Shown in pieces: positions 34,700-52,201 of a DNA stretch of 64,000 bases (positions within the stretch are counted from its first letter, which is position 1; each line of letters begins with the position of its first letter). The translations under genes and the position numbers were made by a program. The notes beneath the pieces are model-generated. The model did not search any database, had not been told where the DNA came from, and saw nothing but the letters and a program-made list of their open reading frames with translations. Source of the DNA: Ignavibacteriota bacterium. GTDB taxonomy: Bacteria > Bacteroidota > Ignavibacteria > UBA10030. The DNA lies in assembly GCA_963833465.1 (NCBI GenBank), contig CAWHXW010000002.1, positions 195,393 to 259,392 of the forward strand, written 5' to 3'.

Positions 34700-36157
34700 T
34701 CAAGCTATATAATGCGATGATGCAGTTTCACCGCCTTGTCCTGTCCAATTAGTATGAAAAAACTCGCCTCTCGGTCTATCGACTCGCTCATACATATGCG
34801 CGCCAAAGAAATCGCGCTGTGCCTGTAACAGATTTGCAGGAAGTCTCCTTTGCCGATAACCATCATAGAATACTAATGAAGAACTCATCGAGGGCATTGG
34901 AATTCCTATTTTTACAGCTTTTGCAACAACTTTCCGCCATGATTCTTGACAATTTGCCATGACTTTCTTGAAGAATGGGTCGAGAAGAAGATTTACGAGT
35001 TTTGGATTCTTATCAAATGCTTCTTTAATTTTTTCAAGGAACGTGCTTCGAATAATACATCCTCCACGCCACAAGCTGGCAATTCCGCCATAATTGAGAT
35101 CCCATTTAAATTCTTTTGCAGCTTCTTTCATCAACATATATCCTTGAGCATAAGACGTCAGTTTAGAAGCATACATTGCTCTGCGGATGTCTTCAACAAA
35201 CTCTTTCTTATTACCTGTAATTTTTTTCTTTGCGGGTCCTTTTAAAATCTTTGAAGCTATAACACGCTCATCTTTAATAGCAGAGAGACAACGTGCAAAA
35301 ACGGCTTCCGAAACCATCGTCATTGGTACACCAAGATCAAGCGCTGACACACTTGTCCACTTGCCAGTTCCTTTCTGACCTGCTGTATCGAGAATAAAAT
35401 CTACGACATACTTTTTCTTTTCATCTTTATAATTTAAAATGTCTCGAGTAATTTCAATAAGATAAGAACTTAGTTCACCTTCATTCCAATCTTTAAATAC
35501 TTCACTCATATTTTTATTGCTCATGCCCATGCCTTCTTTCATCATTTGATAACACTCACAAATAAGCTGCATATCGCCGTACTCGATTCCGTTATGCACC
35601 ATTTTAACGAAATGACCTGCACCGTTCCCGCCAACCCAGTCGCAACATGGCGTTCCATCCGCGACCCTTGCTGCAATCGCTTGAAAAATCGATTTTATAT
35701 GCGGCCAAGCTGCAGGTGAACCTCCTGGCATAATTGAAGGTCCGCGTAATGCTCCTTCTTCACCACCTGAGACTCCGGTACCGATATATAGCATCCCTTT
35801 CGACTCCACATATTTTGTTCTTCGCATTGTATCAAGGAAATGCGAGTTACCACCATCAATAATTATATCGCCCGGCAACATGTGAGGGATCAGTTGTTCA
35901 ATAAAATCATCTACAGCTTTTCCAGCTTTCACCATTAACATAATCTTGCGCGGAACTTTTAACGTGGATATAAATTCTTGTGCGGAATGCGCTCCAATAA
36001 TTTTCTTTTCTTTTGCCCGTCCGTTAATGAAGTTATCAACCTTTTCCACTGTCCTATTAAACACTGCGACGGTGAACCCGTGACTTTCAATATTAAGCAC
36101 AAGATTTTCTCCCATTACCGCGAGTCCAATTAGACCAATATCAGCTTTTAGTTCCAC
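34700..36157 (-). CDS. gnd: 6-phosphogluconate dehydrogenase, decarboxylating
   Basis: The N-terminal Rossmann motif GLIGLAVMGENLVLN is present, and the 485-aa length and sequence are Gnd-like throughout. Confidence 0.95.
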   Translation of the reverse strand: MELKADIGLIGLAVMGENLVLNIESHGFTVAVFNRTVEKVDNFINGRAKEKKIIGAHSAQEFISTLKVPRKIMLMVKAGKAVDDFIEQLIPHMLPGDIIIDGGNSHFLDTMRRTKYVESKGMLYIGTGVSGGEEGALRGPSIMPGGSPAAWPHIKSIFQAIAARVADGTPCCDWVGGNGAGHFVKMVHNGIEYGDMQLICECYQMMKEGMGMSNKNMSEVFKDWNEGELSSYLIEITRDILNYKDEKKKYVVDFILDTAGQKGTGKWTSVSALDLGVPMTMVSEAVFARCLSAIKDERVIASKILKGPAKKKITGNKKEFVEDIRRAMYASKLTSYAQGYMLMKEAAKEFKWDLNYGGIASLWRGGCIIRSTFLEKIKEAFDKNPKLVNLLLDPFFKKVMANCQESWRKVVAKAVKIGIPMPSMSSSLVFYDGYRQRRLPANLLQAQRDFFGAHMYERVDRPRGEFFHTNWTGQGGETASSHYIA

Positions 36158-36199
36158 TCCGATTTTCCTTGTTTTATTTATATTTTTCCTGTTGATAAA

Positions 36200-37471
36200 T
36201 TAATTAAACCGTTTTTCATGCGACCACAATCCTAATGCTGGATTTGAGATGTAGAATATTTTTTCCCCATCAAGCATCGTGTTGAAGCCATAAGTAAGTT
36301 TTTCGGGATTATATTTCATCATCATTTGAGACAAGTCAGCATACATGAAGTGGACGCTTTCAATTTCTTGTTTTGTAAGATGACCAGGGCAATATGTTAT
36401 CGAAAAACGGCCTTCTGATGAACCATGAATCAGATGCGCAGCTACACTTAAATTATTTTTTAGATCGTCGGCATTCTTCACATATTGCAATATTTTTTGT
36501 GTCCCAATATACCCGTATTTACGAATGAGCGTATCAATTTTTTTATCTTCGCCAAATTCCTTCAACGCCGGCGCTAAAATGATAAGTTCCCCGTTATCTG
36601 CAATTGCCATACGTGTCCGATAAATGCTTTTGTTGCCAAGCCAGGCACTTTTGAATTCAGAGGGATCAAGATAGACGACAACTTTCTTCAATGGTTCTTC
36701 GATCATTTGGAAATTTACTTTAAGTGATAATGCAGATGCAAGATTAAAACATTCTACATCATCACCTATAAATAAGCCGCGCACTTTTAGCCGGCTATCA
36801 TCTCCGGGTGCAACTACAGTGAGTATATAAATAATAGGCAAGTTTTTAGCAAAATGATCTGATGCATAATTTAAAACACGACGCACTGGATTATCAGCAC
36901 ACCCCATAATACGCTCCATACCGTATACTGCACTGAGAAAATGACTTTTATCAATGCTTTCCGGGCCACCTGTCCCAATAAATATGTTCTTGTTGTAATT
37001 AGCCATTCCTATTACTTCATGAGGAACTACCTGTCCAATAGATAAAATTAAATCATAATCGCCTTCAATTAACAGCTTGTTGACCTGCGCTTTCCACCCA
37101 TAATTTAATTTCCCTGCTGATTGTTGATAAATAAACTCAGTAGGTACTTCGCCGAGTGTTATAATGTCTGTCCGCCAATTATGTTTGCGAAAAAGGCCAA
37201 GGGGTACATTACCAAACATAGTCTTTATTTCGTTTTCGGTCATAGCGGCATGCGTACCGAGCGCTGGAAGAACATCGGTAAGTTTATCATGGTAATATTC
37301 CCACACAAGCCGTGTTAATATGCCAGCCTGTGAATGGTAACGTGTAAAATCTGGCGGGATTGCTAAAACTTTTCTTTTCACACTCAACTTTGCCAGTGCT
37401 TCGTACAGTCCTTTTTTAAGTTCTTCTTCATAAAGAACATCGTTTTCAGAACCTTTATTGTATAGTAACAT
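36200..37471 (-). CDS. LarA-family (DUF2088, nickel-pincer-dependent racemase/epimerase-like) protein
   Basis: Several segments parallel LarA from memory: PPDFTRYHS (compare SSDHTRPVP), ILSIGQVVPHEVIGMANYNKNIFIGTGGPESIDKSH (compare the SHFFAGFSGGRKS region), and NGELIILAP...FG. The length is about 423 aa. No database search was possible. Confidence 0.6.
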   Translation of the reverse strand: MLLYNKGSENDVLYEEELKKGLYEALAKLSVKRKVLAIPPDFTRYHSQAGILTRLVWEYYHDKLTDVLPALGTHAAMTENEIKTMFGNVPLGLFRKHNWRTDIITLGEVPTEFIYQQSAGKLNYGWKAQVNKLLIEGDYDLILSIGQVVPHEVIGMANYNKNIFIGTGGPESIDKSHFLSAVYGMERIMGCADNPVRRVLNYASDHFAKNLPIIYILTVVAPGDDSRLKVRGLFIGDDVECFNLASALSLKVNFQMIEEPLKKVVVYLDPSEFKSAWLGNKSIYRTRMAIADNGELIILAPALKEFGEDKKIDTLIRKYGYIGTQKILQYVKNADDLKNNLSVAAHLIHGSSEGRFSITYCPGHLTKQEIESVHFMYADLSQMMMKYNPEKLTYGFNTMLDGEKIFYISNPALGLWSHEKRFN

Positions 37472-37575
37472 AATATTTGTTTGACTTATAACTTTGAAAA
37501 GAATTTAGCTTATGTAAAGTTTTTTAGTAGATTGTTAAATATTTCATTCTCTAACTTCTCCATCACAATCGAAAA

Positions 37576-38658
37576 TTAACGCTGGATACGCGCCGATTCG
37601 CCTTTGGCAAAAGATTTCACTTGTTCCAAGGTTACCATTGTCGTGTCTCCAGGTGTAGTAGTGAGTAATGCACCATGCGCCCATCCAAGCTTCACAGCTT
37701 CTTCAGGTTCTTCATCTATTAATAAGCCGTAGAACAATCCACTTGCGAATCCATCACCACCGCCCACACGATCCAAAACATCCAGTTCACAGATAGGTGA
37801 AGTATATATCTTTCCATCGATCCATGCTACTGCACCCCAGCTATGTCGATTTGTTGAATGTACTTCGCGTAAAGTCGTTGCAACAATTTTGACATGTGGA
37901 TACTTTGCCACCACTTTGTCAATCATGCTAATGAATGAACTTGGGTCAAGTTTCGACTTTGCTGTCGCTTCCGGGCTGGGGATACCTAAACTCTTCTGCA
38001 GATCCTCTTCATTACCTACTAAAACATCTGCGTTATTTATGATGCGAGTGATTACATCAACCGTATTCTTCTGTCCTCCACGAATATTCCAAAGCTTCTC
38101 TCGGAAATTTAAATCGAAGCTTACGATCGCGCCTGCTTTCTTCGCTGCTTTCATACCCTCAATAATAAGTTCGCCGGTAGATTCAGAGAGCGCTGCAAAA
38201 ATTCCGCCGCTGTGAAACCATCGGACCCCGTCAGCGAAAATAGTATCCCAGTCGAAATCACCAGGCTTCAATTGCGCCGCAGCTTCATTTGATCGATTGT
38301 AAAATACTACAGGAGGACGCACACCTTGTCCGCGATCACTATACACCGCTGCCATGTTGGGACCATTTACACCATTGTGTTTAAAGCGTTTATAGAATGG
38401 TTTTACTCCCATAGCTCGAACACGTTCTGCAATTAAGTCGCCAATCGCATAATCTACCATTGCTGTTACGATGCCTGTGTTCAAGTGGAAACAATCAGCT
38501 AAGTTTGCGGCTACATTAAATTCTCCGCCACTCACATGTATCTGGCATTCAATTGCTTTTCTGAAAGGAATTATTCCAGAATCCAACCGATGAACTAATG
38601 CACCTAACGAAATCAAATCCAAAGCACCTTCCTTATGAATACTCAAACCAATGTTCAT
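37576..38658 (-). CDS. kdgK: PfkB-family sugar/sugar-acid kinase (KdgK-like)
   Basis: The PfkB C-terminal motif DRVGGGDGFASGLFYGL is present, in a hexuronate-operon context. Substrate is not certain (see finding). Confidence 0.65.
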   Translation of the reverse strand: MNIGLSIHKEGALDLISLGALVHRLDSGIIPFRKAIECQIHVSGGEFNVAANLADCFHLNTGIVTAMVDYAIGDLIAERVRAMGVKPFYKRFKHNGVNGPNMAAVYSDRGQGVRPPVVFYNRSNEAAAQLKPGDFDWDTIFADGVRWFHSGGIFAALSESTGELIIEGMKAAKKAGAIVSFDLNFREKLWNIRGGQKNTVDVITRIINNADVLVGNEEDLQKSLGIPSPEATAKSKLDPSSFISMIDKVVAKYPHVKIVATTLREVHSTNRHSWGAVAWIDGKIYTSPICELDVLDRVGGGDGFASGLFYGLLIDEEPEEAVKLGWAHGALLTTTPGDTTMVTLEQVKSFAKGESARIQR

Positions 38659-38703
38659 TATTTACTCCTTTTATGGTCTATTTATTTTCGACCTTTAACT
38701 GCT

Positions 38704-39537
38704 TTATACTCCTGAGTATGCAGAAAATCCACCATCAATAGGCAGTACAATTCCTGTGACAAACTTTGAAGCGGGCGATAACAACCACAATACGGTGCCT
38801 AATAAATCATCGGGTACGCCGAAGCGTGCCATTGGCGTATGATCGAGAATATTTTTACCGCGTGCAGTCAATTCACCTGTCGTTTTATTTGTCAAGAGGA
38901 ATCGATTTTGTTCAGTCAGAAAAAAACCTGGCGCAATTGCATTGACTCGGATGTATGGCGAATATTCCTGTGCCATGTGAACAGCTAACCATTGTGTGAA
39001 GTTGCTTACTGCCGCCTTTGCTGCTGAGTATGCCGGTATACGGGTTAATGGCCGAAAAGCATTCATCGATGAAATATTCAGAATCACTCCTTCTTTTTGC
39101 TCCGCCATTTTCTTCCCAAAAATCTGACTTGGCAATATTGTGCCGATCAAATTTAAATTAGAAACGAACTGCAGCGCCTCTGAAGAAATGTCGAAAAAGC
39201 TTTGATCGGCATTAACTGTAGCTTTTGGATCGTTACCTCCAGCACCGTTGATGAGGCAATCAATACTACCATAAATTGAAAGTACTTTATCTGCCGCTTC
39301 TTGAACTTTCTTTTTATCAATCACATCGATAAAAAATACTTTGTGCTTTCCTTGTGTACCATTTAACGATTGAATTGTCTTTTCACCAAGCGAAACATCA
39401 CGATCAAAAATAACGACATTTGCATTACATCCAGCAAGTGCTTTTGCAATCTCGCCGCAGAGTATACCAGCGCCGCCGGTGATGGCTATTGTTTTGCCGG
39501 TAAAATCATACAGCTTTATTATTTCCTGTAAGTTCAT
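38704..39537 (-). CDS. SDR-family oxidoreductase (UxuB-like fructuronate reductase / mannonate oxidoreductase candidate)
   Basis: It carries TGGAGILCG cofactor motif and the YSAAKAAV catalytic motif. It sits between the hexuronate transporter and the kinase. Confidence 0.7.
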   Translation of the reverse strand: MNLQEIIKLYDFTGKTIAITGGAGILCGEIAKALAGCNANVVIFDRDVSLGEKTIQSLNGTQGKHKVFFIDVIDKKKVQEAADKVLSIYGSIDCLINGAGGNDPKATVNADQSFFDISSEALQFVSNLNLIGTILPSQIFGKKMAEQKEGVILNISSMNAFRPLTRIPAYSAAKAAVSNFTQWLAVHMAQEYSPYIRVNAIAPGFFLTEQNRFLLTNKTTGELTARGKNILDHTPMARFGVPDDLLGTVLWLLSPASKFVTGIVLPIDGGFSAYSGV

Positions 39538-39554
39538 ATTAGAAATCCTTGTGT

Positions 39555-40877
39555 TTAGAATACTTCAACTCGTTCCATTTTTGGAGCTAATACATTAAAA
39601 ATAATCCATGCAACCAGATACGCTGAACTACAAAACAAGAAAATCATAAAATAACCGGTTTCAATAGAACCTATTTCTTTATAATGATCAAGTAACACAC
39701 CTGTAACCTTCGAGATTAGAATTCCACCTAATGCACCTGCCATACCTCCAATACCTGTTACTGAAGCAACCGATTTCTTGGGAAACATATCTGATGTCGT
39801 TGTATAAAGATTGGCAGACCATGCTTGATGTGCAGACGCTGCAAATCCAATAATAAAGATTGTGAACCAATAACAATATTGTCCTAATGCTTGAGCAGCA
39901 GCTATCGGTAATACACATAATGCAAAGATAAGCATGGAAATTCTGCGTGCTTTATATACTTCCCATCCTTTCTTTATCAGGTTGCTTGATAACCATCCGC
40001 CAAAAATACTGCCGAACATAGTCATCGTATATACAGAAGCAATTGGAAGAACGAGATCTGTTTTCGACATACCATACTGTCTATTTAGAAACGAAGGCAG
40101 CCAGAACAAATAGAACCACCAAACTGGATCTGTTAAAAATTTTCCTAAAATAAATGCCCACGTTTGTCTAAACGTAAGCAGCTTAAACCAGTTCACTTTT
40201 TCTTTGTGTTTTTCTTCATTAATAATTTCATCATTATCACTGCAGATATAATTATATTCGTCTTTTATTAATTTTGGATGTCTGCTTGGAATTTCATACA
40301 TCACAAACCAGAAGACCAGCCAAATAAGACCTACAGCACCGGTGAGAATAAACGCCCACTGCCAACCAAAATAGAGAGCAATTAAAGGAACTGTCAATGG
40401 TGCAATAATAGCACCAACATTTGAACCAGAGTTAAAAATTCCAGTAGCTAAAGCTCTTTCTTTTTTGGGAAACCATTCTGCAACAGTTTTTATTGCTGCG
40501 GGAAAGTTACCCGACTCACTGATTCCAAGTACACTACGAGCAGCTATAAATCCAAACGTGCTTCCGGCAAAAGCATGTCCGATTGCTGCAAGACTCCAGA
40601 TAAACAATGACAACGCATACCCAAGTTTTGTCCCGATTTTATCAATAACCCAACCTATACCGAGCATTCCGATTGCATACGAGAGTTGAAAAACAATAAC
40701 AATGTCAGAATAATTTGATTCTGACCATCCGAATAGAGGATCGAGATAATCGTCCTTTAATAGACTGATAACCTGGCGGTCCAAATAATTAACTGTTGTA
40801 GCAAAAAAAACAAGTGTTAAGATGATCCAACGGTAATTTCCAATTCTAACTTTTATTCCATTATTATCAGACATCAT
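39555..40877 (-). CDS. exuT: MFS transporter, ACS/hexuronate (ExuT-like)
   Basis: It is a 12-TM-like protein with an N-terminal NYLDRQVISLLK motif typical of ACS-family MFS transporters, adjacent to uxaC. Confidence 0.7.
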   Translation of the reverse strand: MMSDNNGIKVRIGNYRWIILTLVFFATTVNYLDRQVISLLKDDYLDPLFGWSESNYSDIVIVFQLSYAIGMLGIGWVIDKIGTKLGYALSLFIWSLAAIGHAFAGSTFGFIAARSVLGISESGNFPAAIKTVAEWFPKKERALATGIFNSGSNVGAIIAPLTVPLIALYFGWQWAFILTGAVGLIWLVFWFVMYEIPSRHPKLIKDEYNYICSDNDEIINEEKHKEKVNWFKLLTFRQTWAFILGKFLTDPVWWFYLFWLPSFLNRQYGMSKTDLVLPIASVYTMTMFGSIFGGWLSSNLIKKGWEVYKARRISMLIFALCVLPIAAAQALGQYCYWFTIFIIGFAASAHQAWSANLYTTTSDMFPKKSVASVTGIGGMAGALGGILISKVTGVLLDHYKEIGSIETGYFMIFLFCSSAYLVAWIIFNVLAPKMERVEVF

Positions 40878-40904
40878 TTTTCTCGTTTTGCAATAAAAAT
40901 ATTA

Positions 40905-42317
40905 TTATTTAAAATTGAAATATCGTTTTGCATTGTAATAACAGATATCCTGCACAATACTTCCTATATATTTCAAGTCATTCGGAATTAAACCTTTTTC
41001 CATTTCTGTCCCGAAAATATTACATAATAATCTTCGAAAATATTCATGTCGCGAGTAAGAAAGAAAACTTCGCGAATCTGTTACCATACCTACAAACTGG
41101 CTTAATATTCCCATATTTGAAAGAGCGTCAATTTGCCTTCGCATCCCATCAAGTTGATCGAGAAACCACCAGCTTGAACCATATTGCATCTTGCCAGCCG
41201 TACTGCTATCTTGAAAATTGCCAATCATACTCGCCATCAACTCATTGTCGCATGGGTTGATATTGTAAATAATTGTTTTTGGAAGTCGATTTTGTGAATC
41301 GAGTTTATCAAGCAATTTTGCTAATGGACGTGCAATTTCAAAATCACCTATAGAATCAAAGCCCATGTCAGCACCCAATTCTCGCATCATCCGTGAATTA
41401 TTATTTCGAAGCGCTCCGAAATGGAATTGCTGCGCCCATCTTTTTTCATAATCCATCACTCCTAATTCATATAATATCGCTGATTTGAATTTCAGAATTT
41501 CTTTCTCATCAAGATTCTTTCCCTTGTGCAGTTTTTTGAAAATAAACTTTATCTCCGATTCCGAATAATTTTCCGAATATGGTATTTCTAATCCATGATC
41601 AGAAAGCCGGCAGCCATGCGCATGAAAGTAATCATGACGACTTTTAATAGCAGAAACAAACGAATAATAATCCTTTATATCAATTCCAGAAATAACTTCT
41701 AGCTTATTGATGTAGGAAACGAAAGTATCCACATTTTCCACAGCCATAGCTTTATCTGGACGAAATGTCGGAAGCATCTGAGTAAATCCGTTTCCTCCTT
41801 TTGCGTACGCTTTGTGGTATTCCAAATTGTCTGTTGGATCATCGGTAGTGCAAATAATTTCAACGTTCATGCATTTTAGAATTCCCTGAGTCGAAAAGCC
41901 CGGCATTGATAGTTTCTTATTGCATTTGTTCCATATAACTTTTGCTGTCTTTTCGCTTAGAATTACATTATTGATTCCAAAAGGCCGCCGCAATTCAAGA
42001 TGTGTCCAGTGGTTGAGTGGATTTCGGATTGCTTTCGGCACAGTACGTGCCCACATCTCAAACTTTTCCCAATCCGATGCACTTCCTGTAATGAAATGTT
42101 CATCAATACCGCATGTCCGCATCGCACGCCATTTGTAATGATCGCCATTCAGCCATATCTGTGTGAGATTATCGAATTGTTTGTTCTCAGCAATTTCTTT
42201 TGACGAAAGATGGCAGTGATAATCAATGATAGGTAACGATTCAGCATAGGAATGATAAAGTTCTGATGCGGTCTTCGTTTCAAGTAAGAAATCTTCATGG
42301 ATAAATTTCTTTTTCAT
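40905..42317 (-). CDS. uxaC: glucuronate isomerase
   Basis: The IIDYHCHL motif is present and the ~470-aa sequence is UxaC-like. The ORF-track start at 42332 is TTG, so I prefer the ATG at 42317 (MKKKFIHEDFLL). Confidence 0.92.
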   Translation of the reverse strand: MKKKFIHEDFLLETKTASELYHSYAESLPIIDYHCHLSSKEIAENKQFDNLTQIWLNGDHYKWRAMRTCGIDEHFITGSASDWEKFEMWARTVPKAIRNPLNHWTHLELRRPFGINNVILSEKTAKVIWNKCNKKLSMPGFSTQGILKCMNVEIICTTDDPTDNLEYHKAYAKGGNGFTQMLPTFRPDKAMAVENVDTFVSYINKLEVISGIDIKDYYSFVSAIKSRHDYFHAHGCRLSDHGLEIPYSENYSESEIKFIFKKLHKGKNLDEKEILKFKSAILYELGVMDYEKRWAQQFHFGALRNNNSRMMRELGADMGFDSIGDFEIARPLAKLLDKLDSQNRLPKTIIYNINPCDNELMASMIGNFQDSSTAGKMQYGSSWWFLDQLDGMRRQIDALSNMGILSQFVGMVTDSRSFLSYSRHEYFRRLLCNIFGTEMEKGLIPNDLKYIGSIVQDICYYNAKRYFNFK

Positions 42318-42442
42318 GTTTTTCTCCGGCAATCGAAGTTTATTCTATAAAACGCTACATCATTGATTAAAAACCGTATTCTGATAAAATGATTTTATCC
42401 TGATCTATCGTGGAGATTGATTCCTTACAAAATTTACTTTCA

Positions 42443-42742: not shown

Positions 42743-43774
42743 TTACGAATAATGTTGAATGGTTTGAATAAATGCATTTATATTTTCCGAGTTAACCCCT
42801 GGCGGCATACCGCCCCCGCATGATAAAATAATCTTCGATTTTTCTTGAAGAGAGTTCAACAGCGCCATAGTCGTCTTCGTTACTAAAGTAACATCGTTGC
42901 TTGCTAAAACATCTCGCGGAGGAATGTTACCGAGAAGAACAACTTTATTTTGTGTCGAATTTTTCAATTCATTAAGTGTAATATCGAAACCCATATTAAA
43001 CAGATTGACGCCTATTTCCGGAAGCAGCGGAGCGCATACTTTACAAGGAGCGTCATTATGCAGAAATTTGATTGACACCTCAGCGTCATACAATTCTTTG
43101 AAATATGGCAATCCGAAAGTACGAAATTCTTCTTCACCTAAAAAACCAATTATATCATCTAACAAAAAAATGCCATCGATGGATGAAAATGTTTCTATTT
43201 GCAGATTCAGCCAGTCTTTCAGATAAACTGTAATCTTCTTTATGAGGTGATGCGCTTTCTCTGGCTGTATCATCATCGTAGTTAGAAATTCCGTCGATCC
43301 CATCAGATAGCTGGCAATATTTAAAGGACCTCGAGCAACGGCAAAACGAATTTTATGTCCGGCCGCTTCAATCTTTGGTTGCGCAAGTTTTAACCGATTT
43401 AACACGAGCGGTAAGAGGCCATCCGTTTTTGGATTCGGCTGTGGAAGCATGTCAATATCATCCACTGATTGAATAATTTTATGCGCATAAGGAAATTCGT
43501 TTTCCGGAAAAACACAGCGTGTTCCAAACGCCGATGGTTCCGTACACATACCGAATTCGGACCAAAACCCAGGAAAATAAATTACATCTGGAAAATCTTG
43601 AAGTGCTTTCAGATTTGCCTTCAACCACAGTTCGTCGTTCGAAAAATAATCAAGAATATTAACACCGTACCAATTTGGCAGCCATGGGCTGTCAATGATA
43701 AAACCTGCAGGTAAAGGATTCAATATTTCTCCATTTATTACTTTCTGAAGAATTTCCCATTGTTGATCTGTCAT
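42743..43774 (-). CDS. uroporphyrinogen-decarboxylase (URO-D) family methyltransferase-like protein (MtaA/MtvB-like)
   Basis: URO-D-like segments are present (ARGPLNIASYLMG, ILSCGGGMPPG). It sits in a corrinoid-protein context rather than a heme-biosynthesis one. Confidence 0.7.
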   Translation of the reverse strand: MTDQQWEILQKVINGEILNPLPAGFIIDSPWLPNWYGVNILDYFSNDELWLKANLKALQDFPDVIYFPGFWSEFGMCTEPSAFGTRCVFPENEFPYAHKIIQSVDDIDMLPQPNPKTDGLLPLVLNRLKLAQPKIEAAGHKIRFAVARGPLNIASYLMGSTEFLTTMMIQPEKAHHLIKKITVYLKDWLNLQIETFSSIDGIFLLDDIIGFLGEEEFRTFGLPYFKELYDAEVSIKFLHNDAPCKVCAPLLPEIGVNLFNMGFDITLNELKNSTQNKVVLLGNIPPRDVLASNDVTLVTKTTMALLNSLQEKSKIILSCGGGMPPGVNSENINAFIQTIQHYS

Positions 43775-43863
43775 TCTACTTATCTTCCAATTTTATTTGC
43801 AATGATATATTCTATTTACAGAATGAAATGTCTTTTGCTAATAATCCAATTCTATGATTTATT

Positions 43864-44629
43864 TTATGTGCGTTCTGCTTTAGCGAATCTGATCACACGA
43901 TACCTGCAGTCCTTCATTCCGCATATATCGCAAGAATAATCGACTCTTTTAACTGTTTTCCCAATACCAATAATACCACTGACAGATTTAATAGGGACCA
44001 TCAACGACGATTCAGTGAGAGTAATTCCACAAAAATTTGCGGGGAGAAATGAGAACAGAAGATGTTGTTCTGACACAGACCAATCGCAGTACCCCGGACT
44101 AAACCTATTTGTTATTTTCAATCCATACATCTTCATACGTTTTTCGATATAATCATGGAGCACGTCAGTTGCTTGATCTACTGTTATTGATGCAACTGTA
44201 TCTATCAAGTAACTTAATGCAGCATCTCCATCGACAAATAATTTCTTTGCCCAGTTTTCCATAGCCGGACCGATTGTACAAACAAAAAGTGCCACTCTCT
44301 CAGATTTCTTAAGTTGCTTAGTGATATTGTTTTGCAAATTAAAAAATTTTCCGCCAGCGAATAATCCATCATTTCGATTTTCTGAATTTCTGACATTTAG
44401 AAGTCTATAACCTGCCTTCAATTTACAATATTTTGGTAGTTGAGATAGAATGTTTTCTATCATCTCTTCGAAATGCACTGGAATGGTACCGGCGGCATAT
44501 CCGAGGTACAGAAACTATTTCACTCTTTTTTATAGTTAAATCTTTTAAGTTGATTTCGATTTCAAAAGTATCATCTGGCAAAGCCAAGGATTCCAATTTT
44601 TGTTCGACTTGAGGAATAGCTTTTTCCAT
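43864..44629 (-). pseudogene. methionine-synthase-type B12 reactivation (AdoMet-binding) domain protein, split by one frameshift
   Basis: The ORF at 43864-44478 carries PGYCDWSVSEQHLLFSFLP...ESSLMVPIKSVSGIIGIG (Met_synt_B12-like). The N-terminal part (MEKAIPQVEQ...KKSEIV) lies in the 44423-44689 ORF frame. Removing one T from GTTTCTG near 44515 joins them into ...SEIVLYLGYAAGTIPVHFEEM. The span is 766 nt (3n+1). The start overlaps the upstream stop (TGATG). Confidence 0.7.
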
Positions 44630-45513
44630 CAGTGAACCCTTATCACTTGAACTATTTTCCGGATATGCGCCGGTGTAGTACCGCAACAACCACCAATAAT
44701 ATTTGCTCCACTCTTAATTAAATCCGGGATTTTTGCAGCTATCATTTCCGGTGTTTCCGGAAATATTGTCTTACCATCCTGATAAACGGGTTTTCCAGCA
44801 TTCGCATGGACAAGAATAGGCGTTAATGGATCGATTGTTCTAATTTCTTTAACTATATCAATCATTTGATCAAATCCATTTCCACAATTTGTCCCGATAA
44901 CAGAAGCACCGGCTTCCTTAACCGACTGAACCATTTCAGCAGGTGAAACCCCCATCATAGTACGGTATTCACCGCTAATAGTTTTCTCAAAAGTAAATGT
45001 GCAAACCACTTCTAATCCAGTAGACTCGCGAGCTGCACGAATCGCGAGACACGCCTCGTCAAGAGCGGACATTGTTTCCACACAAATTGCATCAACTCCA
45101 CCTTTTTGCAGAGCCTTTGCCTGAATAACAAATCCATTATACAAAGTTTCTTCAGAAACTTCTCCCATCATTAAAATTATGCCTGTAGGACCGATTGAAC
45201 CGAGTACGAGATGATCCGTGCCTGCTGCTTCTCTTGAGATGACTGCTGCTGCCTCGTTCAGTTCAGAAGTTCGATTTTGCAGACCATAATGCTCTAATTT
45301 AGATGGACTGGAGCCAAAACTGTTTGTGAGAATTATATCAGCACCGGCATCGATATAACTTTTTGCGATCGCAAGTACGTCAGCGCGATGAGTAATATTC
45401 CACAATTCTGGACATTCTCCAGACTGTAATCCTCGTTGATGCAGAAAAGTGCCCCAAGCACCATCCGAGATGAGGGTTTTTTTATTTTTAAGTGACATGA
45501 GAAGCGAATTCAT
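44629..45513 (-). CDS. homocysteine S-methyltransferase domain protein (MetH N-terminal module-like)
   Basis: It carries SDGAWGTFL at the N-terminus and the zinc-site region GANIIGGCCGTTPAHIRKI. Confidence 0.8.
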   Translation of the reverse strand: MNSLLMSLKNKKTLISDGAWGTFLHQRGLQSGECPELWNITHRADVLAIAKSYIDAGADIILTNSFGSSPSKLEHYGLQNRTSELNEAAAVISREAAGTDHLVLGSIGPTGIILMMGEVSEETLYNGFVIQAKALQKGGVDAICVETMSALDEACLAIRAARESTGLEVVCTFTFEKTISGEYRTMMGVSPAEMVQSVKEAGASVIGTNCGNGFDQMIDIVKEIRTIDPLTPILVHANAGKPVYQDGKTIFPETPEMIAAKIPDLIKSGANIIGGCCGTTPAHIRKIVQVIRVH

Positions 45514-45567
45514 TTTTCTAACTTATCTTTTAAAAAAATATTTTATCTCAAGAAAGAGCTTTCTCAT

Positions 45568-46284
45568 CTATTCTTTAACTGAAGAAATCATACTATCCAA
45601 AATCGCCACCGCCCCTTGAGGATCTCGAGAATATCCATCTGCGCCCATTTTTAAAGCTACTTCCATAGTCAGTGGTGCACCGCCAACAATAATTTTTGTG
45701 GATGGAAATATTGCTTTAATTTCCTGAACCGTTTTCGACATACTGACCATTGTCGTTGTAAGTAATGCACTTATACCAACTACGCAACCCGGATTATTTT
45801 TAATAGTTTCTAAGAATTTTACTGCTTTGACATCGACACCTAAATCAATAACTTCCCAGCCATTGCCTTCGATAACCATTCTAACTAAATTTTTTCCGAT
45901 GTCGTGTAAATCGCCGGCAACAGTACCAAGAACAAATTTCCCTTTTATCTTAATGCTTCCTTTTTTGAAAAATGGTTCAAGATGAGCCATCACAGCGTGC
46001 ATCGCCTTAGCTGCCATTAATAACTCAGGAACGAACACTTCATTTCTACTAAAGCGTTCGCCGATACGCTGCATACCATCATTACATGCCTGTAGAATAG
46101 CATCGGGCCCAATAGCAGATTCCAATGCTTGCCGTGTCAATTCATCTGCCCCTTCCATACCTTTCATATCATTAGGATATGGCGAAACTTTGTTAATCTT
46201 TCCACGCTCAATACACCTGCCTATTTTTTCAGTTAATTCATTCAAAACAATTAACCCTGAGACATCAAAAATAATTTGTTGCAA
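45568..46284 (-). CDS. corrinoid (B12-binding) protein, MtaC/MetH-cap plus Rossmann type
   Basis: The DxHxxG motif is present (GDLHDIGKNLV), preceded by a helical cap domain. The start is TTG. Confidence 0.85.
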   Translation of the reverse strand: MQQIIFDVSGLIVLNELTEKIGRCIERGKINKVSPYPNDMKGMEGADELTRQALESAIGPDAILQACNDGMQRIGERFSRNEVFVPELLMAAKAMHAVMAHLEPFFKKGSIKIKGKFVLGTVAGDLHDIGKNLVRMVIEGNGWEVIDLGVDVKAVKFLETIKNNPGCVVGISALLTTTMVSMSKTVQEIKAIFPSTKIIVGGAPLTMEVALKMGADGYSRDPQGAVAILDSMISSVKE

Positions 46285-46576
46285 TGGATTTATTATTTAT
46301 TTGTTCATTATAACTTTTATATTCAAACCAATTATTATAAGATACATTTGTGTAATGTCTTCCTGGTGAGTATGTGCTCATTTTCACGAATTTCTAATTT
46401 AGTTCAGGAAGCAAGATATTGATTTCAGCTTTGCCCTTATCCAAATAAAATCGATTGTTGTTTGAAATAACGGCTGATAAAGTTTTTGACTTCAGCCACT
46501 AACTTAAAATAACGAATTTCCTATTTTAATCAAGTATTTAGGTGAAAGAACACTTTATCTGTACAAAAACTGATGG

Positions 46577-46606
46577 AAAGCGGAGATCACTTTACATCTC
46601 CGCTTT
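46577..46606 (-). terminator. candidate terminator hairpin downstream of ygiQ
   Basis: An 11-bp stem, AAAGCGGAGAT / ATCTCCGCTTT, encloses an 8-nt loop. On the minus strand a partial T-run follows (CCATCAGTTTTTG). Confidence 0.45.
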
Positions 46607-46736: not shown

Positions 46737-48587
46737 CTAAACATTTTTATTAGAGTGCAAGTCAAGAAATTTGATAATATCAAAACGCTTAATTTTAAAA
46801 AGTTCCCTTTTTAACTCTGCACGCTTTTCCCTGTTGTAAAGAAAGAAAAATAACTGTTGTATTTTTTTTTCTTTTGCTGAACGAGGGATATAAATCTTTT
46901 CATTGGTATATGGATCAAATCCTGTATAAAACATTACCGATGCCAGCGTCATAGGAGTAGGAGTGAAATCTTGTATCTGTTCAAGATTCATATTCAGTTT
47001 TCGCATTTGAACCGATAGGTCAGCCATATCGTCGAGTTCACAATCAGGCAAACTTGATATAAAATATGGAATCAATTGTTGGTTCAACCCATTTTTCTTG
47101 CAGATTGCTGTAAATCGATTAAGTAAATGAATAAACAAATCAAAGGAAGGTTTGCGTAACAGTTTTAAAACTTTTTTTGAAGTATGCTCAGGCGCTACCT
47201 TCAATCTACCGGAGACATGATTCACAACAAGCTCATCGAAATATTCAAGTGAAGAAGGAGCAATTGATTTATTATTATTATCGATTATAAGATCATATCT
47301 GATTCCGCTTCCAATGGTAATTTTCTTTATCCCTTTTATCGTCCTCGCTTCTTTATACAAAGCAATAAGTGGATTGTAACTTGTATCAAGATTTTTACAA
47401 ATTAGCGGGTAAATGCATGCCGGACGTTTGCATTTAGCGCACTTCTTATAATTAATACTTTTCATCATATACATATTAGCCGAAGGTCCGCCCATATCAG
47501 TAATGTGCCCTGTAAAAGACGGATCATCAGCAATACTTTTCAATTCATTTAATATGGAAGCCTTCGAACGACTTGAAACAAATTTTCCTTGGTGAGCTGA
47601 AATAGTGCAGAATGAACAACCTCCAAAACACCCTCGATGTATCGTGACAGAATCTTTAATCATTTCATAAGCAGGAATATGTTCCTTTCTCTCGTACCTC
47701 GGATGCGGCCGGCGAGTGAACGGAAGATTATAAATGCTATCGATCTCATCCTGCGAAAGTACAGAAAACGGCGGATTGACTATAACATATTTATTTCCTG
47801 TTTTTTCAGCGAGAAGCCGTTGTTCTATTTTATTTGATTCTTCTTCAATCACCACAAAATTGAGAGCAAATGATTTTTTACTTTTTACACATTCTTCGAA
47901 GGAAGCGAGGACGACCATTTTTTCATTTTCAACAGACGGAAGTTCTTTCGCACAATAAGCTGTTTGAGGAATATTCCTTATGTCTTCAATTTGTTCGTCG
48001 CTATTTAATCTTTCAGCTATTTCAAAAATAGCTTTTTCAGCCATTCCATAAGCAAGTAAATCGGCATTTGAATCAATTAATATTGAAGGCTTCAAAGAAT
48101 CGCTCCAATAATCATAATGCGTAAGCCGACGAAGCGAAGCTTCAATACCTCCGATTATTAAAGGAACATCAGGATAAAGCAATTTCAATATCTTTGAATA
48201 AACTTGCACTGCATAATCGGGTCTCTGCCCTGCTTTATTTCCCGGTGTAAATGCATCGTTTGACCGAAGCCGCTTGTTAGCAGTGTAGTGATTAACCATC
48301 GAATCCATATTACCAGATGTGACTCCGAAAAATAACCTGGGTGTCCCCATTTTTTTAAAGTCCCTTAAATCATCTCGCCAATTAGGCTGTGGAACAATCC
48401 CGACTTTATAGCCCGCATTTTCCAACACTCGCGCCACAACAGCCGCACCAAACGCCGGATGATCAACAAATGCATCTCCTGTGAACAATATTACATCGGC
48501 TTGCTCCCAGCCAAGCTCTCGCATCTCTTTCACAGAAGTCGGAAAAAAGTTGGACTCTTTATACACTTGACCTTTGAAACTTTTCAT
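46737..48587 (-). CDS. ygiQ: YgiQ-family radical SAM protein (UPF0313)
   Basis: The radical SAM cluster motif RGCFGGCSFCTI is present, and the ~616-aa length and N-terminal domain are typical of YgiQ. Confidence 0.85.
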   Translation of the reverse strand: MKSFKGQVYKESNFFPTSVKEMRELGWEQADVILFTGDAFVDHPAFGAAVVARVLENAGYKVGIVPQPNWRDDLRDFKKMGTPRLFFGVTSGNMDSMVNHYTANKRLRSNDAFTPGNKAGQRPDYAVQVYSKILKLLYPDVPLIIGGIEASLRRLTHYDYWSDSLKPSILIDSNADLLAYGMAEKAIFEIAERLNSDEQIEDIRNIPQTAYCAKELPSVENEKMVVLASFEECVKSKKSFALNFVVIEEESNKIEQRLLAEKTGNKYVIVNPPFSVLSQDEIDSIYNLPFTRRPHPRYERKEHIPAYEMIKDSVTIHRGCFGGCSFCTISAHQGKFVSSRSKASILNELKSIADDPSFTGHITDMGGPSANMYMMKSINYKKCAKCKRPACIYPLICKNLDTSYNPLIALYKEARTIKGIKKITIGSGIRYDLIIDNNNKSIAPSSLEYFDELVVNHVSGRLKVAPEHTSKKVLKLLRKPSFDLFIHLLNRFTAICKKNGLNQQLIPYFISSLPDCELDDMADLSVQMRKLNMNLEQIQDFTPTPMTLASVMFYTGFDPYTNEKIYIPRSAKEKKIQQLFFFLYNREKRAELKRELFKIKRFDIIKFLDLHSNKNV

Positions 48588-49195: not shown

Positions 49196-52100
49196 TTATT
49201 CAAAATTTGAATTTTGGCAGAAAACCATTGCGGCTTTTCTGGTTTTAAAAATACCAAGATAGACACGAAATCGCAGACCTAATGATGGAATATGAGCAGA
49301 TTTTGTGAACGGCTTAAGTCCTGGGAAGACCTCAGCTCTCTTCACAATTTGCATTGCTTTTGATTTCGTAACCCAAGAAGAAATCTGAAGAACATATCCC
49401 TTTTTCTCTAAATTGTAAGTCACTATGCATGGTTTTTCATCACCGGTTATTTGTGAAAGCGGTACTACTTTCTTTTTAACTATCGCAGATTTTTCATCAT
49501 TAGTTACAAGTGGAAGCGGTATAACCTTCTCTTTAACTATTGCAGGATTTTCTAAAGGAACAGTTTTTTGTTCACTCAATTTTAGAGGCCCAGCCGAAGT
49601 GTCGCTTCGGAGGGAATGAAGCACGAATTCGAGTCCGTCAACTACATCACCATCCTTATTTTTTAAAATATTTACCGGCAATGCTATTGGTGAAGAAGTC
49701 ATTTCTAATCTGTGCAACTGAGCCGCATCAATTTTGACGATATACGAACCAGGCGACAAACCAAGATAATTGAAATAACCATCCGACTCCGTAAGCGTGC
49801 TCGCAACAAGACTTGAATCATCTTTGCGGTAAAATCGTACAATAATGCGTCCCTGCCCTTTTTTGCCATCGTTTTCGCTAAGATATACTGTTCCTGAAAC
49901 TTCGCCAACTATAGCAATAGGAATCTCTATCAATTTGAATTGATCGGGATCGACGATAACATTTATTGTTTGCTTCTTTATCTGCCAACTAATATTATCA
50001 AAACTATTACGATCAAGTTCAATCGTGTAGGTAATATAAGGTTCTAAATCGAATATGCGTATCGTAGTATCTCGATCGTCACGTTCTACACGGCCGCCGT
50101 TTATACTAAATTTAAGACCAGCAGCTTTTGGCTCATCTTTATCACGCACACCGTTGCAATTAAGATCGAGAAAAGGAACTATGACGATTCCCCCTTTGCC
50201 TACACTTGGTCGATTATCTGTACCAAGGTAATTTGTTTTTCCATCCAACATCAAACTTCCAGAGGCAGATTGAATAAAGTTGGTCGTATTGTAGTCGCGC
50301 CTGACCGATGCATTAGTTTGTGCAGAAGGAAATTCATAGCGCAGTCCAACCTGATAAATGTTAACGTTGTTAATGAAGTCCTTTTCATAAATTATATTTA
50401 GATAGCCATGATCGAATATTTTTTTTTCAAATTCACATTTTGCAAAAACAAACTCTTTTTGATTATAATTATATTGCATTTGAGGTGTAACAATTAATCC
50501 AGCAGGGAGTCTGAAAGACAGCGAAAGATTGCTGTAGACGTACGGAGGAGATTGATCTACATACATTGCATAGGTAGTGGAATTAATGCTTACACCAAAA
50601 ATAGAACCGGACAGCAATAAATCAGATGTCGTGTATTCCGTTGCAGGCATAATAATTTGATTGATAGAAAGCCGAGAATATATTGTGCAATTCCCGAAAC
50701 CAACAGGCATAGATATTACAGCTTTACGATCTTCAAGAAAATTGTTATTTATTGCTTTTTGATCTTTATTATAAATAGAATAATTGACTTCAAACTGTAA
50801 GTTTGAAGGCAAGCGGCAATTGAGTACACCGTTTGACATTACACCATTTATATATTCTCCGGACAAAAGTATGCCGGAAGCAGGACTTAACGAAGCATTT
50901 AAAAAAGGCATACTTTTCCCTGAAGTGACTGAAGAAAAATATTCGACTCCGCTGCCGACTGTAATATGCCTATCCACACCATAATTGAAATTGGCGCGCG
51001 AAAACAGATTATTGCTTCCATCTTCCACAGTTCCTGAACTCACGGTATATTCAAATTCTTTTGGCGGTAAAAAATTAAATGGTATTGTTATTCTTTGTAT
51101 TTTTGTGCGCTCTTCTCCCCAAGGACCGTAAAAACGTAGTTTGATATCTGAATTACCATAAACAAGAGGAACTTCGAAAGAAAAAAAACCGGAAGCATCG
51201 GCTTTAACATAATCCACCAACACATTATTAACATAGAGCTCCACTATCCAATTCGGTTCTGTGTAGTCGCTCAAAGTGTAGGAACCAAACGATTGCCTGT
51301 AAGTTGTCGGCGCATTTGTTATTTGCGCTCCAAATACAGGTGCATAAATAGATGAGATCGACTGCGTCGAGATATTTCCTGCCATTATTTGTCGATAGGC
51401 ATTATTATCATTGTTGACATAACGCCATTGGAAATATTGTTCTCTATCGGCAAAAGGTTCGTTGTTATCGTAATTGATTAAAACTTTCGTTTCTCCTCCT
51501 GCTAGAATCGCTCCGAGCCCCATAGTAATTCTATCATCATTCTTGCCCTGTGGTTGCTCCATCGCATTGACCGACCAATCTGCTGTTCCAAAATGAAAAA
51601 ATGGATAATCTCTTCCAATTACGGTATCGGCTTTTGTTTCTCCTTTGAGACGGCTGATGTTTTTACGCATTATTTCCTGGCGCATTTCTCGAATTGCAGG
51701 CAATTCTAGTTTTGTATTCAATACTACTGAAAGACTGCGGAAATTAAATGAACAATACAAACCAAATACTTCGCCAAAATAATCCGATTTCAAGTAAAGA
51801 TTGGTTTCTGTTCGGATTAGATCATTTGGTTTCAGATCAAATACTTTTTCTTGAAATAAAATTTGTTTGTGCACCCTATCAATAAGATAAGTTGCCTCTC
51901 TATCAATAAAAAAACCAGAGACTGTATCAAATCCCTTTGAAGGATTGTTTTTGATTTTTAAAAAATCAAAAACATCTGTAATAGAAAGAAATATACTATC
52001 GCCGCGGATGACAGCCGGAATCTCTGCTATTCCTATGCCTTGCACATAGAAAGAAACTGATATTTCATCATATTCGGATTCTTTCTGAGCATAACTTGGC

Positions 52101-52201
52101 ACTGGCAGTAATACAGCACACAACAGAATACCGAACACAATCCGCCAAATGGTAGCTCTTTGTATTTGAATATCTATCGTGAAATGCAAGCTGATTTCCA
52201 C
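49196..52201 (-). CDS. usher-like outer-membrane protein with CarboxypepD_reg-like and C-terminal SPOR-like domains
   Basis: It has a GTG start and a signal peptide ending SYAQ. An usher-like middle motif is present (WIVELYVNNVLVDYVKADASGFFSFEVPLVYGNSDIKLRFYGPWGEE), flanked by long beta-rich Y/F/N/S sequence. The stretch GEVSGTVYLSENDGKKGQGRIIVRFY...GSYIVKI looks like a regulatory beta-sandwich. The last ~75 aa are SPOR-like (GYVLQISSWVTKSKAMQ...RVYLGIFKTRKAA). Confidence 0.5.
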   Translation of the reverse strand: MEISLHFTIDIQIQRATIWRIVFGILLCAVLLPVPSYAQKESEYDEISVSFYVQGIGIAEIPAVIRGDSIFLSITDVFDFLKIKNNPSKGFDTVSGFFIDREATYLIDRVHKQILFQEKVFDLKPNDLIRTETNLYLKSDYFGEVFGLYCSFNFRSLSVVLNTKLELPAIREMRQEIMRKNISRLKGETKADTVIGRDYPFFHFGTADWSVNAMEQPQGKNDDRITMGLGAILAGGETKVLINYDNNEPFADREQYFQWRYVNNDNNAYRQIMAGNISTQSISSIYAPVFGAQITNAPTTYRQSFGSYTLSDYTEPNWIVELYVNNVLVDYVKADASGFFSFEVPLVYGNSDIKLRFYGPWGEERTKIQRITIPFNFLPPKEFEYTVSSGTVEDGSNNLFSRANFNYGVDRHITVGSGVEYFSSVTSGKSMPFLNASLSPASGILLSGEYINGVMSNGVLNCRLPSNLQFEVNYSIYNKDQKAINNNFLEDRKAVISMPVGFGNCTIYSRLSINQIIMPATEYTTSDLLLSGSIFGVSINSTTYAMYVDQSPPYVYSNLSLSFRLPAGLIVTPQMQYNYNQKEFVFAKCEFEKKIFDHGYLNIIYEKDFINNVNIYQVGLRYEFPSAQTNASVRRDYNTTNFIQSASGSLMLDGKTNYLGTDNRPSVGKGGIVIVPFLDLNCNGVRDKDEPKAAGLKFSINGGRVERDDRDTTIRIFDLEPYITYTIELDRNSFDNISWQIKKQTINVIVDPDQFKLIEIPIAIVGEVSGTVYLSENDGKKGQGRIIVRFYRKDDSSLVASTLTESDGYFNYLGLSPGSYIVKIDAAQLHRLEMTSSPIALPVNILKNKDGDVVDGLEFVLHSLRSDTSAGPLKLSEQKTVPLENPAIVKEKVIPLPLVTNDEKSAIVKKKVVPLSQITGDEKPCIVTYNLEKKGYVLQISSWVTKSKAMQIVKRAEVFPGLKPFTKSAHIPSLGLRFRVYLGIFKTRKAAMVFCQNSNFE
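49433..49546 (-). repeat. two imperfect 57-bp (19-aa) tandem repeats encoding the linker before the SPOR-like domain
   Basis: TTTTTCATCACCGG...CGCAGA (from 49433) is repeated as TTTTTCATCATTAG...GCAGGA (from 49490). The peptide is KEKVIPLPLVTNDEKSAIV / KKKVVPLSQITGDEKPCIV. Confidence 0.7.

Follow-up and report, generated by a model that had tools for sequence, protein, structure and literature searches.

A corrinoid methyl-transfer gene block beside a glucuronate operon in an Ignavibacteriota bacterium: a candidate O-demethylase for 4-O-methyl-D-glucuronate

We analyzed a 64,000-nucleotide stretch of the genome of an Ignavibacteriota bacterium (assembly GCA_963833465.1, contig CAWHXW010000002.1, positions 195,393 to 259,392; hereafter the window, numbered from its first letter) that contains a four-gene block predicted to function in corrinoid-dependent methyl transfer. 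The block (42743-46284) encodes a corrinoid carrier protein (CorP), a homocysteine S-methyltransferase (HcyMT), a protein with the reactivation domain of the cobalamin-dependent methionine synthase MetH (Act), and a divergent member of the uroporphyrinogen decarboxylase (URO-D) superfamily. All four genes are co-directional and on the minus strand in the list of open reading frames (ORFs), and six further genes on the same strand, the first of which is uxaC, lie directly downstream (Table 1). The four domain identities had been assigned in an original prediction made from the sequence alone, and all of them hold in Pfam searches and in the motifs of the translations.

CorP contains the DxHxxG motif as GDLHDIG, and its true start probably lies some 15 codons past the listed TTG at 46284, judging from a median length of 222 amino acids among relatives. 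Its best NCBIfam match is an MtgC-type model and falls below the cut-off; among the block proteins, the MtgC model reaches 165 bits (cut-off 370) and PRK07534 reaches 250 bits (cut-off 338). A comparison with solved structures places CorP closer to free-standing corrinoid proteins of the O-demethylase and methylamine type (1y80 from Moorella, 4jgi and 7xcn) than to the B12 domain of MetH (1bmt). The structure 4jgi is the carrier of a putative Desulfitobacterium hafniense O-demethylase (PMC3727330). HcyMT contains the motifs DGAWGT, TNSFG, GTNCG and GGCCGTTP, the last two of which hold the cysteines of the Zn(Cys)3 site, and its nearest solved relative is the homocysteine/folate fragment of Thermotoga maritima MetH (1q7m, E = 1e-45). 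These sequence features lead us to propose that HcyMT acts as a methylcorrinoid:homocysteine methyltransferase (MT2). MtgB-like and pterin-binding domains are absent from all four block proteins in Pfam searches.

The PF02965 match of Act (43 bits, cut-off 25) covers model positions 107-248, which is the C-terminal half only. The sequence RFSPGY fits the RxxxGY signature, and RxSPGY is conserved among relatives. The nearest and only solved relative is 1j6r, which we take to be the stand-alone TM0269 protein of T. maritima. The start of the gene had been predicted to overlap the preceding stop, and indeed the ATG at 44629 shares one base with the HcyMT stop codon TGA (44631-44629). Tblastn comparison with intact relatives and the sequence itself reveal one extra nucleotide near 44506 ('gta c ctc gga', 44500-44510) that breaks the Act frame: the first 41 codons share the frame of ORF 44689..44423, and the remainder that of ORF 44478..43864. 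Act in relatives comprises about 250 amino acids in a single frame, and the listed 204-amino-acid ORF of the window represents its downstream part only. Four other overlapping or abutting ORF pairs in the window are separate intact genes, and the assembly thus shows no sign of being error-prone; the frameshift may be a mutation or a sequencing or assembly error.

Residues 181-241 of the repaired Act sequence (approximately 44090-43905) contain five cysteines that are conserved in 37 relatives: C181 in PGYC, C200 in FCG, and C233, C236 and C241 in a C-terminal CxxCxxxxC. They could serve as ligands of a metal or of an iron-sulfur cluster for electron input.

The description of the block as MetH modules encoded on separate genes fits only in part. 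HcyMT and Act are MetH-like (1q7m and 1j6r), whereas the carrier is nearer to O-demethylase carriers than to 1bmt. The URO-D protein is the sole methyl-donor methyltransferase candidate for the trio of CorP, HcyMT and Act. It scores 65 bits against the HemE equivalog model TIGR01464 (cut-off 303) and 55 bits against the MtaA/CmuA model TIGR01463 (cut-off 235), and genuine HemE identity, an alternative that the original prediction had raised, is ruled out by the NCBIfam cut-offs. An AlphaFold (AF2) model of the protein (pLDDT 79, pTM 0.81) forms a URO-D barrel whose best Foldseek match is MtaA (4ay7, TM 0.73), with several HemE structures at about 0.70; a structure search with this model found no solved structure closer than these. 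HemE thus shares the fold, and also a weak sequence similarity (E = 1e-12), with the block protein, whereas the N-terminal region with the HemE arginine motif is unaligned and a haem-pathway context is absent.

Relatives of the URO-D protein with more than 75% identity number in the thousands, and 122 of 1.84 billion library representatives score below 1e-30 against it. Down to about 25% identity, W71, E/D73, E79, D206-D207, H239-N240-D241, N283, S318 and G320 are near-invariant, while Cys244 and Cys319 are limited to the tight family. We refer to proteins with the H239-N240-D241 sequence as HND-type. The oxygen-ligand-rich site of this clade would be well suited to binding or activating a sugar ether, and for the URO-D protein we propose the role of substrate:corrinoid methyltransferase (MT1), with 4-O-methyl-glucuronate as its substrate.

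A genome scan with one genome per species returned 552 URO-D matches, and the neighborhoods of the best 80 loci (69-84% identity) were mapped by tblastn and clustering of all ORFs, with Pfam checks. These loci are found in metagenome-assembled genomes (MAGs), mostly from peat, fen and sediment, that are labelled Bacteroidota, Ignavibacteriota/Melioribacter, Calditrichota, KSB1, Fibrobacterota/Chitinispirillaceae, Spirochaetia and Kryptoniota. This level of URO-D identity thus spans at least seven phylum-level groups. More than 40 loci, spread over several phyla, share the gene order of the block, and the arrangement is therefore no chance juxtaposition. A typical operon reads LacI< GH8> GH115> GH43> (GH10>) CorP> HcyMT> Act> UROD> (AKR, esterase, GH88, ExuT>), with UxuA< and SDR< nearby. 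At least one gene for xylan degradation or xylose catabolism is present in 52 of the 80 loci, and the most frequent neighbors are GH115 (32 loci), GH43 (25), esterase (20), GH10 (18), GH88 (18), ExuT (17), UxuA (13) and GH8 (13). By tblastn, GH67 was found in 9 of 84 sequences. Genomes hold just a handful of GH115 and GH67 genes, and their clustering with the block therefore cannot be chance. Both families are alpha-glucuronidases that free (4-O-methyl)glucuronic acid from xylan (PMC3879575, PMC8056927).

Partner genes were counted in the 59 loci with at least 3.5 kb of sequence upstream of the URO-D gene. CorP, HcyMT and Act genes lie directly upstream of it on the same strand, with all three present in 31 loci and at least one in 41. 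In 40 loci, Act immediately precedes the URO-D gene; some loci (L009, L010, L023 and L079) lack a reactivation gene. An ExuT homologue comes right after the URO-D gene in 6 of the related loci, and 17 have one within 10 kb. We hold with good confidence that the four genes form a corrinoid methyl-transfer system with a functional link to the use of glucuronate and glucuronoxylan.

This neighborhood bears on the source of the methyl group. The original prediction had offered, as speculation, a link to the methyl esters of pectin. That link falls away, as the conserved neighbors are glucuronoxylan enzymes (GH115, GH67, GH10, GH8, GH43 and GH30) and genes of glucuronate catabolism; pectinolytic genes are absent around the block, both in the window and in its relatives, and the neighbors that are present are xylanolytic and glucuronate-specific. 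The methyl source is thus likely the 4-O-methyl ether of glucuronic acid.

The block had been predicted to lack a pterin-binding module, and this is true of the block and of the 64 kb window, in which tblastn and a profile built from the pterin-binding proteins at related loci found no homologue of the PF00809 type. Co-inheritance of an adjoining pterin gene is likewise not the rule: such a gene occurs within 10 kb in 5 of 83 related loci (L004, L005, L007, L047 and L082) and is absent from the other 78. We consider it very unlikely that the trio is an ordinary split housekeeping methionine synthase with an unlinked pterin subunit, the URO-D gene being an unrelated neighbor from the uronate pathway. 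The MetH-like character of HcyMT and Act would fit such an enzyme, as would the pterin methyltransferase genes of the five loci, the restriction of our view to 64 kb of the genome, and the precedents of MtgCDE in Ruegeria/Phaeobacter (PMC12478193) and of TM0269 (1j6r) in T. maritima. However, a housekeeping enzyme has no reason to sit amid xylan operons, between GH43/GH10 and URO-D/ExuT, in seven phylum-level groups. The trio co-travels with xylan operons at 66-84% identity and without exception has the URO-D gene as its next downstream neighbor, and its carrier is of another type than that of MetH. The most economical reading remains the one originally suggested, in which homocysteine receives methyl groups from a non-folate donor.

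Several related loci contain genes of one-carbon metabolism. In L004, L005 and L007, a pterin methyltransferase gene lies a few genes past the URO-D gene, on its downstream side, together with genes for methylenetetrahydrofolate reductase (MTHFR, MetF), an MTHFR C-terminal (MetV-type) protein and formate-tetrahydrofolate ligase (FTHFS, Fhs). L047 has the order HcyMT, UROD, pterin methyltransferase, CorP, and in 5 loci the gene for PurU (formyltetrahydrofolate deformylase) lies directly upstream of the URO-D gene. By their annotations, pterin methyltransferase, MTHFR, MetV, FTHFS and PurU are the genes that would be needed to oxidize a corrinoid-bound methyl group to formate. The co-occurrence of pterin methyltransferase with MetF, MetV and Fhs in some relatives thus makes folate an alternative methyl sink in this family.

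A second URO-D paralogue, UROD2 (L023:7205-8242), is 24% identical to the window protein and occurs in 12 related loci (besides L023, these are L016, L019, L020, L027, L042, L044, L045, L049, L054, L079 and L081). Its best NCBIfam matches are the MtaA/MtbA families, and it looks to bear the MtaA-type H-x-C motif in one representative sequence read by eye and in alignment. UROD2 often lies just before ExuT, and L019 encodes a separate second set in the order CorP-UROD2-Act-HcyMT.

More distant relatives (32-55% identity to the window URO-D protein) were collected from metagenome contigs, many of them short, and 91 loci were mapped with profiles. UxaC is present in 26 of the 91, and the usual place of the URO-D gene is directly before uxaC. 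A corrinoid gene occurs in four loci (L100, L107, L122 and L141), where it immediately follows the HND-type gene, and in L100 a pterin methyltransferase gene comes next. The usual arrangement is a conserved operon (L090:5646-15780; similar in L091, L095, L096, L098, L108, L115 and L132) that encodes an Opp-type ABC transporter, NagA-like and NagB-like proteins, a GDSL esterase, two H-x-C URO-D proteins, an H-N-D URO-D protein, UxaC, UxaE, an SDR, a LarA-like protein and Gnd. Operons of this type usually lack a corrinoid protein gene nearby. By gene context, the HND clade is tied to hexuronate catabolism, and its tie to a dedicated carrier is recurrent, not constant.

In the window, the genes downstream of the block (34700-42332) are predicted to encode a glucuronate route via fructuronate, mannonate and then, by inference, gluconate, and not a pectin/galacturonate set. 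The operon has no UxuA dehydratase gene. The same UxaC/SDR/kinase/LarA-like/Gnd set is found beside the block, together with GH67, in Chitinispirillaceae/Fibrobacterota loci (L026, L055 and L069). The ExuT-like transporter is proposed, from its family and position, to import (methyl)glucuronate.

Table 1. Genes of the corrinoid block and of the downstream glucuronate operon, with the profile matches on which their names are based.
Gene product	Coordinates	Strand	Profile match
Corrinoid carrier protein (CorP)	46284..45568	minus	Pfam B12-binding_2, 58 bits, and B12-binding, 87 bits (PF02607 + PF02310)
Homocysteine S-methyltransferase (HcyMT), MetH-type homocysteine module	45513..44629	minus	S-methyl_trans PF02574, 228 bits, full length
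MetH-type reactivation (S-adenosylmethionine-binding) domain protein (Act)	44629..43864; listed ORF 44478..43864	minus	Met_synt_B12 PF02965, 43 bits
Divergent URO-D superfamily protein, HND type	43774..42743	minus	PF01208, 122 bits
Glucuronate isomerase UxaC	40905..42332	minus	Pfam UxaC, 678 bits; NCBIfam equivalog, 626 bits (cut-off 387)
MFS transporter, anionic-sugar (ExuT-like)	39555..40877	minus	Pfam MFS_1; best NCBIfam match D-galactonate transporter subfamily, below cut-off
D-mannonate oxidoreductase, SDR type	38704..39537	minus	NCBIfam PRK08277, 365 bits (cut-off 281)
PfkB-family sugar-acid kinase, KDG/hexonate kinase-like	37576..38658	minus	Pfam PfkB; NCBIfam matches below cut-offs
LarA-family nickel-dependent putative hexonate epimerase	36200..37471	minus	NCBIfam NPN_18_hexonate, 654 bits (cut-off 500); Pfam Lar_N
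6-phosphogluconate dehydrogenase Gnd	34700..36157	minus	NCBIfam gnd equivalog, 763 bits

The reading that we favor, and to which we give about even chances, is that the product of the block is a cytoplasmic O-demethylase, corrinoid-dependent and acting on the methyl ether of 4-O-methyl-D-glucuronate from glucuronoxylan, with homocysteine as the methyl acceptor. From the observed domain identities, motifs, gene order and conserved neighborhood we infer the substrate, the acceptor and the following catalytic steps. Alpha-glucuronidases (GH115 or GH67, encoded in the operons of relatives) would free methyl-glucuronate from xylo-oligosaccharides, and the ExuT-like transporter would bring it into the cell. 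The URO-D protein (MT1) would bind methyl-glucuronate, with the ether oxygen activated by E73, E79, D206, D207 and H239-N240-D241, and would transfer the methyl group to the Co(I) of the corrinoid protein, leaving D-glucuronate. The MetH-type zinc enzyme (MT2) would then pass the methyl group of methyl-Co(III) to homocysteine to yield methionine. Corrinoid that has lapsed to Co(II) would be rescued by the MetH-type reactivation domain through reductive methylation dependent on S-adenosylmethionine (AdoMet), a step whose gene carries the frameshift in the window. Finally, glucuronate would be processed by UxaC, mannonate oxidoreductase, the nickel-dependent hexonate epimerase, the kinase and Gnd. 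The later aldolase and dehydrogenase steps of both uronate routes need a free 4-OH, and from this pathway chemistry demethylation must therefore precede them.

A number of points weigh against this proposal. A rough estimate puts the methyl supply from xylan more than tenfold above the demand for methionine and AdoMet, and the homocysteine sink thus looks too small. This surplus leads us to expect a second sink, which may be folate, as the gene content of L004, L005, L007 and L047 suggests, or some other route; none is visible in the window. We know of no precedent for the cobalamin-dependent cleavage of an alkyl, as opposed to an aryl, methyl ether, methanol activation aside. The reactivation gene of the window is frameshifted, and xylanase and alpha-glucuronidase genes (GH115 and GH67) are absent from the window. 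The URO-D protein scores slightly better on HemE than on MtaA models, and the whole clade has H239-N240-D241 where characterized MtaA-type enzymes have a zinc-thiolate His-x-Cys. Finally, the corrinoid genes are not a constant partner: 18 of the 59 close relatives have no trio gene beside the URO-D gene, which instead follows GH115-GH43, a PurU gene or an SDR gene, and 87 of the 91 distant loci show no corrinoid gene. The carrier may be encoded elsewhere in these organisms, or the HND clade may act without a dedicated carrier or by other chemistry.

These last points bear directly on an alternative in which the URO-D protein is a corrinoid-independent hexuronate enzyme that removes or rearranges a substituent of the uronic acid, while the trio is an optional add-on with a separate role. 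Besides the trio-less loci and the replacement of the zinc-thiolate motif, this explanation draws on the distant relatives, which lie in uxaC-uxaE-SDR-LarA-gnd operons with a corrinoid gene in so few cases, and on one relative whose gene shares a sugar-acid cluster with those of an MR/MLE dehydratase, an SDR and an aldolase. It also draws on two loci, one from an Ignavibacteriaceae MAG (L002:8322-9963) and one from a separate run assembly (L003:3-1584), in which HcyMT and Act are each split into two ORFs despite an intact URO-D gene; the splits reflect either decay of the trio or assembly error. We nevertheless regard a corrinoid-independent enzyme as unlikely. It would leave the trio without a donor-side enzyme, and where a corrinoid protein gene is found it immediately adjoins the HND-type gene. 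The distant operons hold two MtaA-like (H-x-C) paralogues, a type known only from corrinoid systems, and methanogen mtaA genes are often unlinked to the genes of their corrinoid proteins. The neighboring genes for PurU, pterin methyltransferase, MetF and Fhs point to one-carbon chemistry, and the characterized non-HemE members of the URO-D superfamily are all corrinoid methyltransferases (PMC10418091).

One form of corrinoid-independent chemistry was considered separately: beta-elimination of methanol to give a 4,5-unsaturated uronate, with GH88 acting next. It fails to explain the corrinoid, homocysteine and folate genes and was kept within the corrinoid-independent alternative. A gene for an unsaturated uronyl hydrolase of the GH88/GH105 type is present in L008 (13036-14298) and in 17 others of the xylan loci, and in 8 of these it immediately follows the URO-D gene. 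Such a gene is unexpected for xylan and could point to a 4,5-unsaturated (hexenuronic-type) intermediate.

The substrate could also differ from the one proposed. Ferulate, a methoxylated aromatic freed from xylan by esterases, is an alternative, in which case the block would encode an aryl methyl ether O-demethylase for ferulate or lignin-derived methoxy-phenolics, like the acetogen Odm, Vdm and Mtv systems and with homocysteine as acceptor. Phenyl methyl ethers are substrates of known MT1 enzymes from the URO-D superfamily (PMC10418091, PMC8630106). CorP is similar to 4jgi, the O-demethylase carrier of D. hafniense, and the esterase (PF00756) found in 20 of the 80 loci is often directly downstream. 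The window and the Fibrobacterota-type loci, by contrast, have no esterase and contain glucuronate catabolism genes only, and no aromatic transporter or ring-processing genes were seen. The distant relatives are tied to uxaC and not to aromatic metabolism. Demethylation of ferulate would also bring no obvious gain to sugar fermenters, whereas demethylation of methyl-glucuronate would unlock a carbon source. An aryl ether substrate thus appears highly improbable to us.

A comparison of the block with characterized systems identifies several that share some of its components. The corrinoid O-demethylases (Odm and Vdm of Acetobacterium dehalogenans, Mtv of Moorella, the D. hafniense enzyme and MtoABCD of Methermicoccus) encode an MT1 enzyme, a small DxHxxG carrier, an MT2 enzyme and a reactivator together (PMC8630106, PMC3727330). 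The block has this architecture, with the URO-D gene in the same operon as the carrier as its candidate MT1, and it is to the carriers of this group (1y80 and 4jgi) that the carrier of the block is closest. The MT1 enzymes encoded by odmB and vdmB also belong to the URO-D superfamily (PMC10418091), whereas the MT1 candidate of the block falls in the separate HND clade. The substrate of these systems is a phenyl methyl ether, in contrast to the alkyl methyl ether of a carbohydrate proposed for the block. Their MT2 is a pterin-binding methyltransferase specific for tetrahydrofolate (THF) or tetrahydromethanopterin, where the block has a MetH-type homocysteine domain, and their reactivator is an ATP-dependent RACE/Ram activase, where the block has a MetH-type AdoMet domain. 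The genes adjoining the block encode no RACE/Ram domain; the window and the related loci were not given a dedicated search for it.

MetH and its split forms (TM0268/TM0269 of T. maritima and MtgCDE; PMC12478193) share with the block the homocysteine zinc module and the B12 carrier; the block adds a putative AdoMet domain with their RxxxGY motif, matched over half of its profile. In MtgBCDE, a catabolic donor methyltransferase (MtgB, for glycine betaine) shares its carrier with methionine synthesis (PMC12478193), and the same logic is proposed here. The block differs in having no pterin module, a carrier that is not MetH-like, and a donor enzyme from the URO-D superfamily instead of the MtgB/TMA-methyltransferase family. 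MtgCDE is found in aerobic marine Alphaproteobacteria, whereas the block occurs in Bacteroidota, Ignavibacteriota and related phyla with an anaerobic or facultative lifestyle, embedded in their polysaccharide-utilization operons.

MtaA, MtbA and MtsA and the bacterial mlp clusters have in common with the block the URO-D fold and the clustering with a corrinoid protein (PMC10418091). The mlp clusters encode several MtaA-like proteins and a RACE activase (PMC10418091); neither multiple Mlp paralogues nor a RACE activase was seen in the window, the latter without a dedicated search. The URO-D protein of the block scores below the cut-off of the MtaA family and has H-N-D in place of H-x-C, and the MtaA-like protein of the related loci is UROD2 instead. 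A functional parallel is offered by the cytochrome P450 of marine Flavobacteriia that demethylates 6-O-methyl-D-galactose (PMC6292453), which is also encoded in a polysaccharide locus and strips a methyl ether from a sugar for catabolism. That reaction is oxidative, depends on O2 and yields formaldehyde, whereas the reaction proposed here would be independent of O2 and would conserve the methyl group. Our literature search found no carbohydrate demethylase other than this P450 (PMC6292453). A full-text search, with subscription journals outside its reach, likewise found no description of the system proposed here, of a methyl-glucuronate demethylase or of URO-D genes in xylan loci.

Glucuronoxylan is among the most abundant polysaccharides on land, and the majority of its glucuronic acid side chains bear a methyl ether at O-4. 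The removal of this methyl group ahead of the uronate pathway appears to be undescribed in bacteria, especially in anaerobes, and the block, a conserved and widely transferred gene set, provides a concrete candidate in the right genomic place. We put slightly below even the chance that the HND-type URO-D protein represents the first cobalamin-dependent demethylase of a carbohydrate methyl ether, removing 4-O-methyl groups without O2 and passing them to homocysteine or, in some lineages, to THF. The block is spread by horizontal transfer through fiber-degrading Bacteroidota, Ignavibacteriota, Fibrobacterota, Calditrichota, Spirochaetia and others of peat, fen and sediment.

If this reading is correct, sugar ethers would join aryl ethers, amines, thiols and methanol as substrates of corrinoid methyltransferases, and many genes annotated as 'uroporphyrinogen decarboxylase family' in fiber-degrading bacteria would gain a function. 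Complete use of xylan would have a cobamide requirement, and hemicellulose decay would be linked to methionine and one-carbon metabolism. Models of carbon flow in peat and sediment would change accordingly, with methyl groups passing to methionine, folate or formate and not to methanol; xylan methyl groups would be diverted from methanol and hence from methylotrophic methanogens. The enzyme could also provide an oxygen-free means of producing glucuronic or glucaric acid from xylan.

Some features of the sequence around the block bear on its expression. A GC-rich hairpin followed by a T run (46575-46604, minus strand) lies just past the gene for a YgiQ radical SAM protein (48587..46737), and an AT-rich spacer of about 290 bp separates this hairpin from the CorP gene. 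The hairpin and spacer suggest that the block has its own promoter. No riboswitch or other RNA element was found upstream of the block, the sole Rfam match in the window being a tRNA (34149-34222). A promoter and terminator scan gave counts no higher than in shuffled sequence and is uninformative for this lineage.

Elsewhere in the window, ORFs of 1001 and 1927 amino acids flank a DUF4402 gene upstream of the block (49196-58609, minus strand), and the product of the 1001-amino-acid ORF has a weak SdrD_B match alone. Homologues of respiratory complex I subunits (51-kDa, 24-kDa thioredoxin-like, 30-kDa and 20-kDa) are encoded at 3287-7408 on the minus strand, and the organism is thus not a purely fermentative anaerobe.

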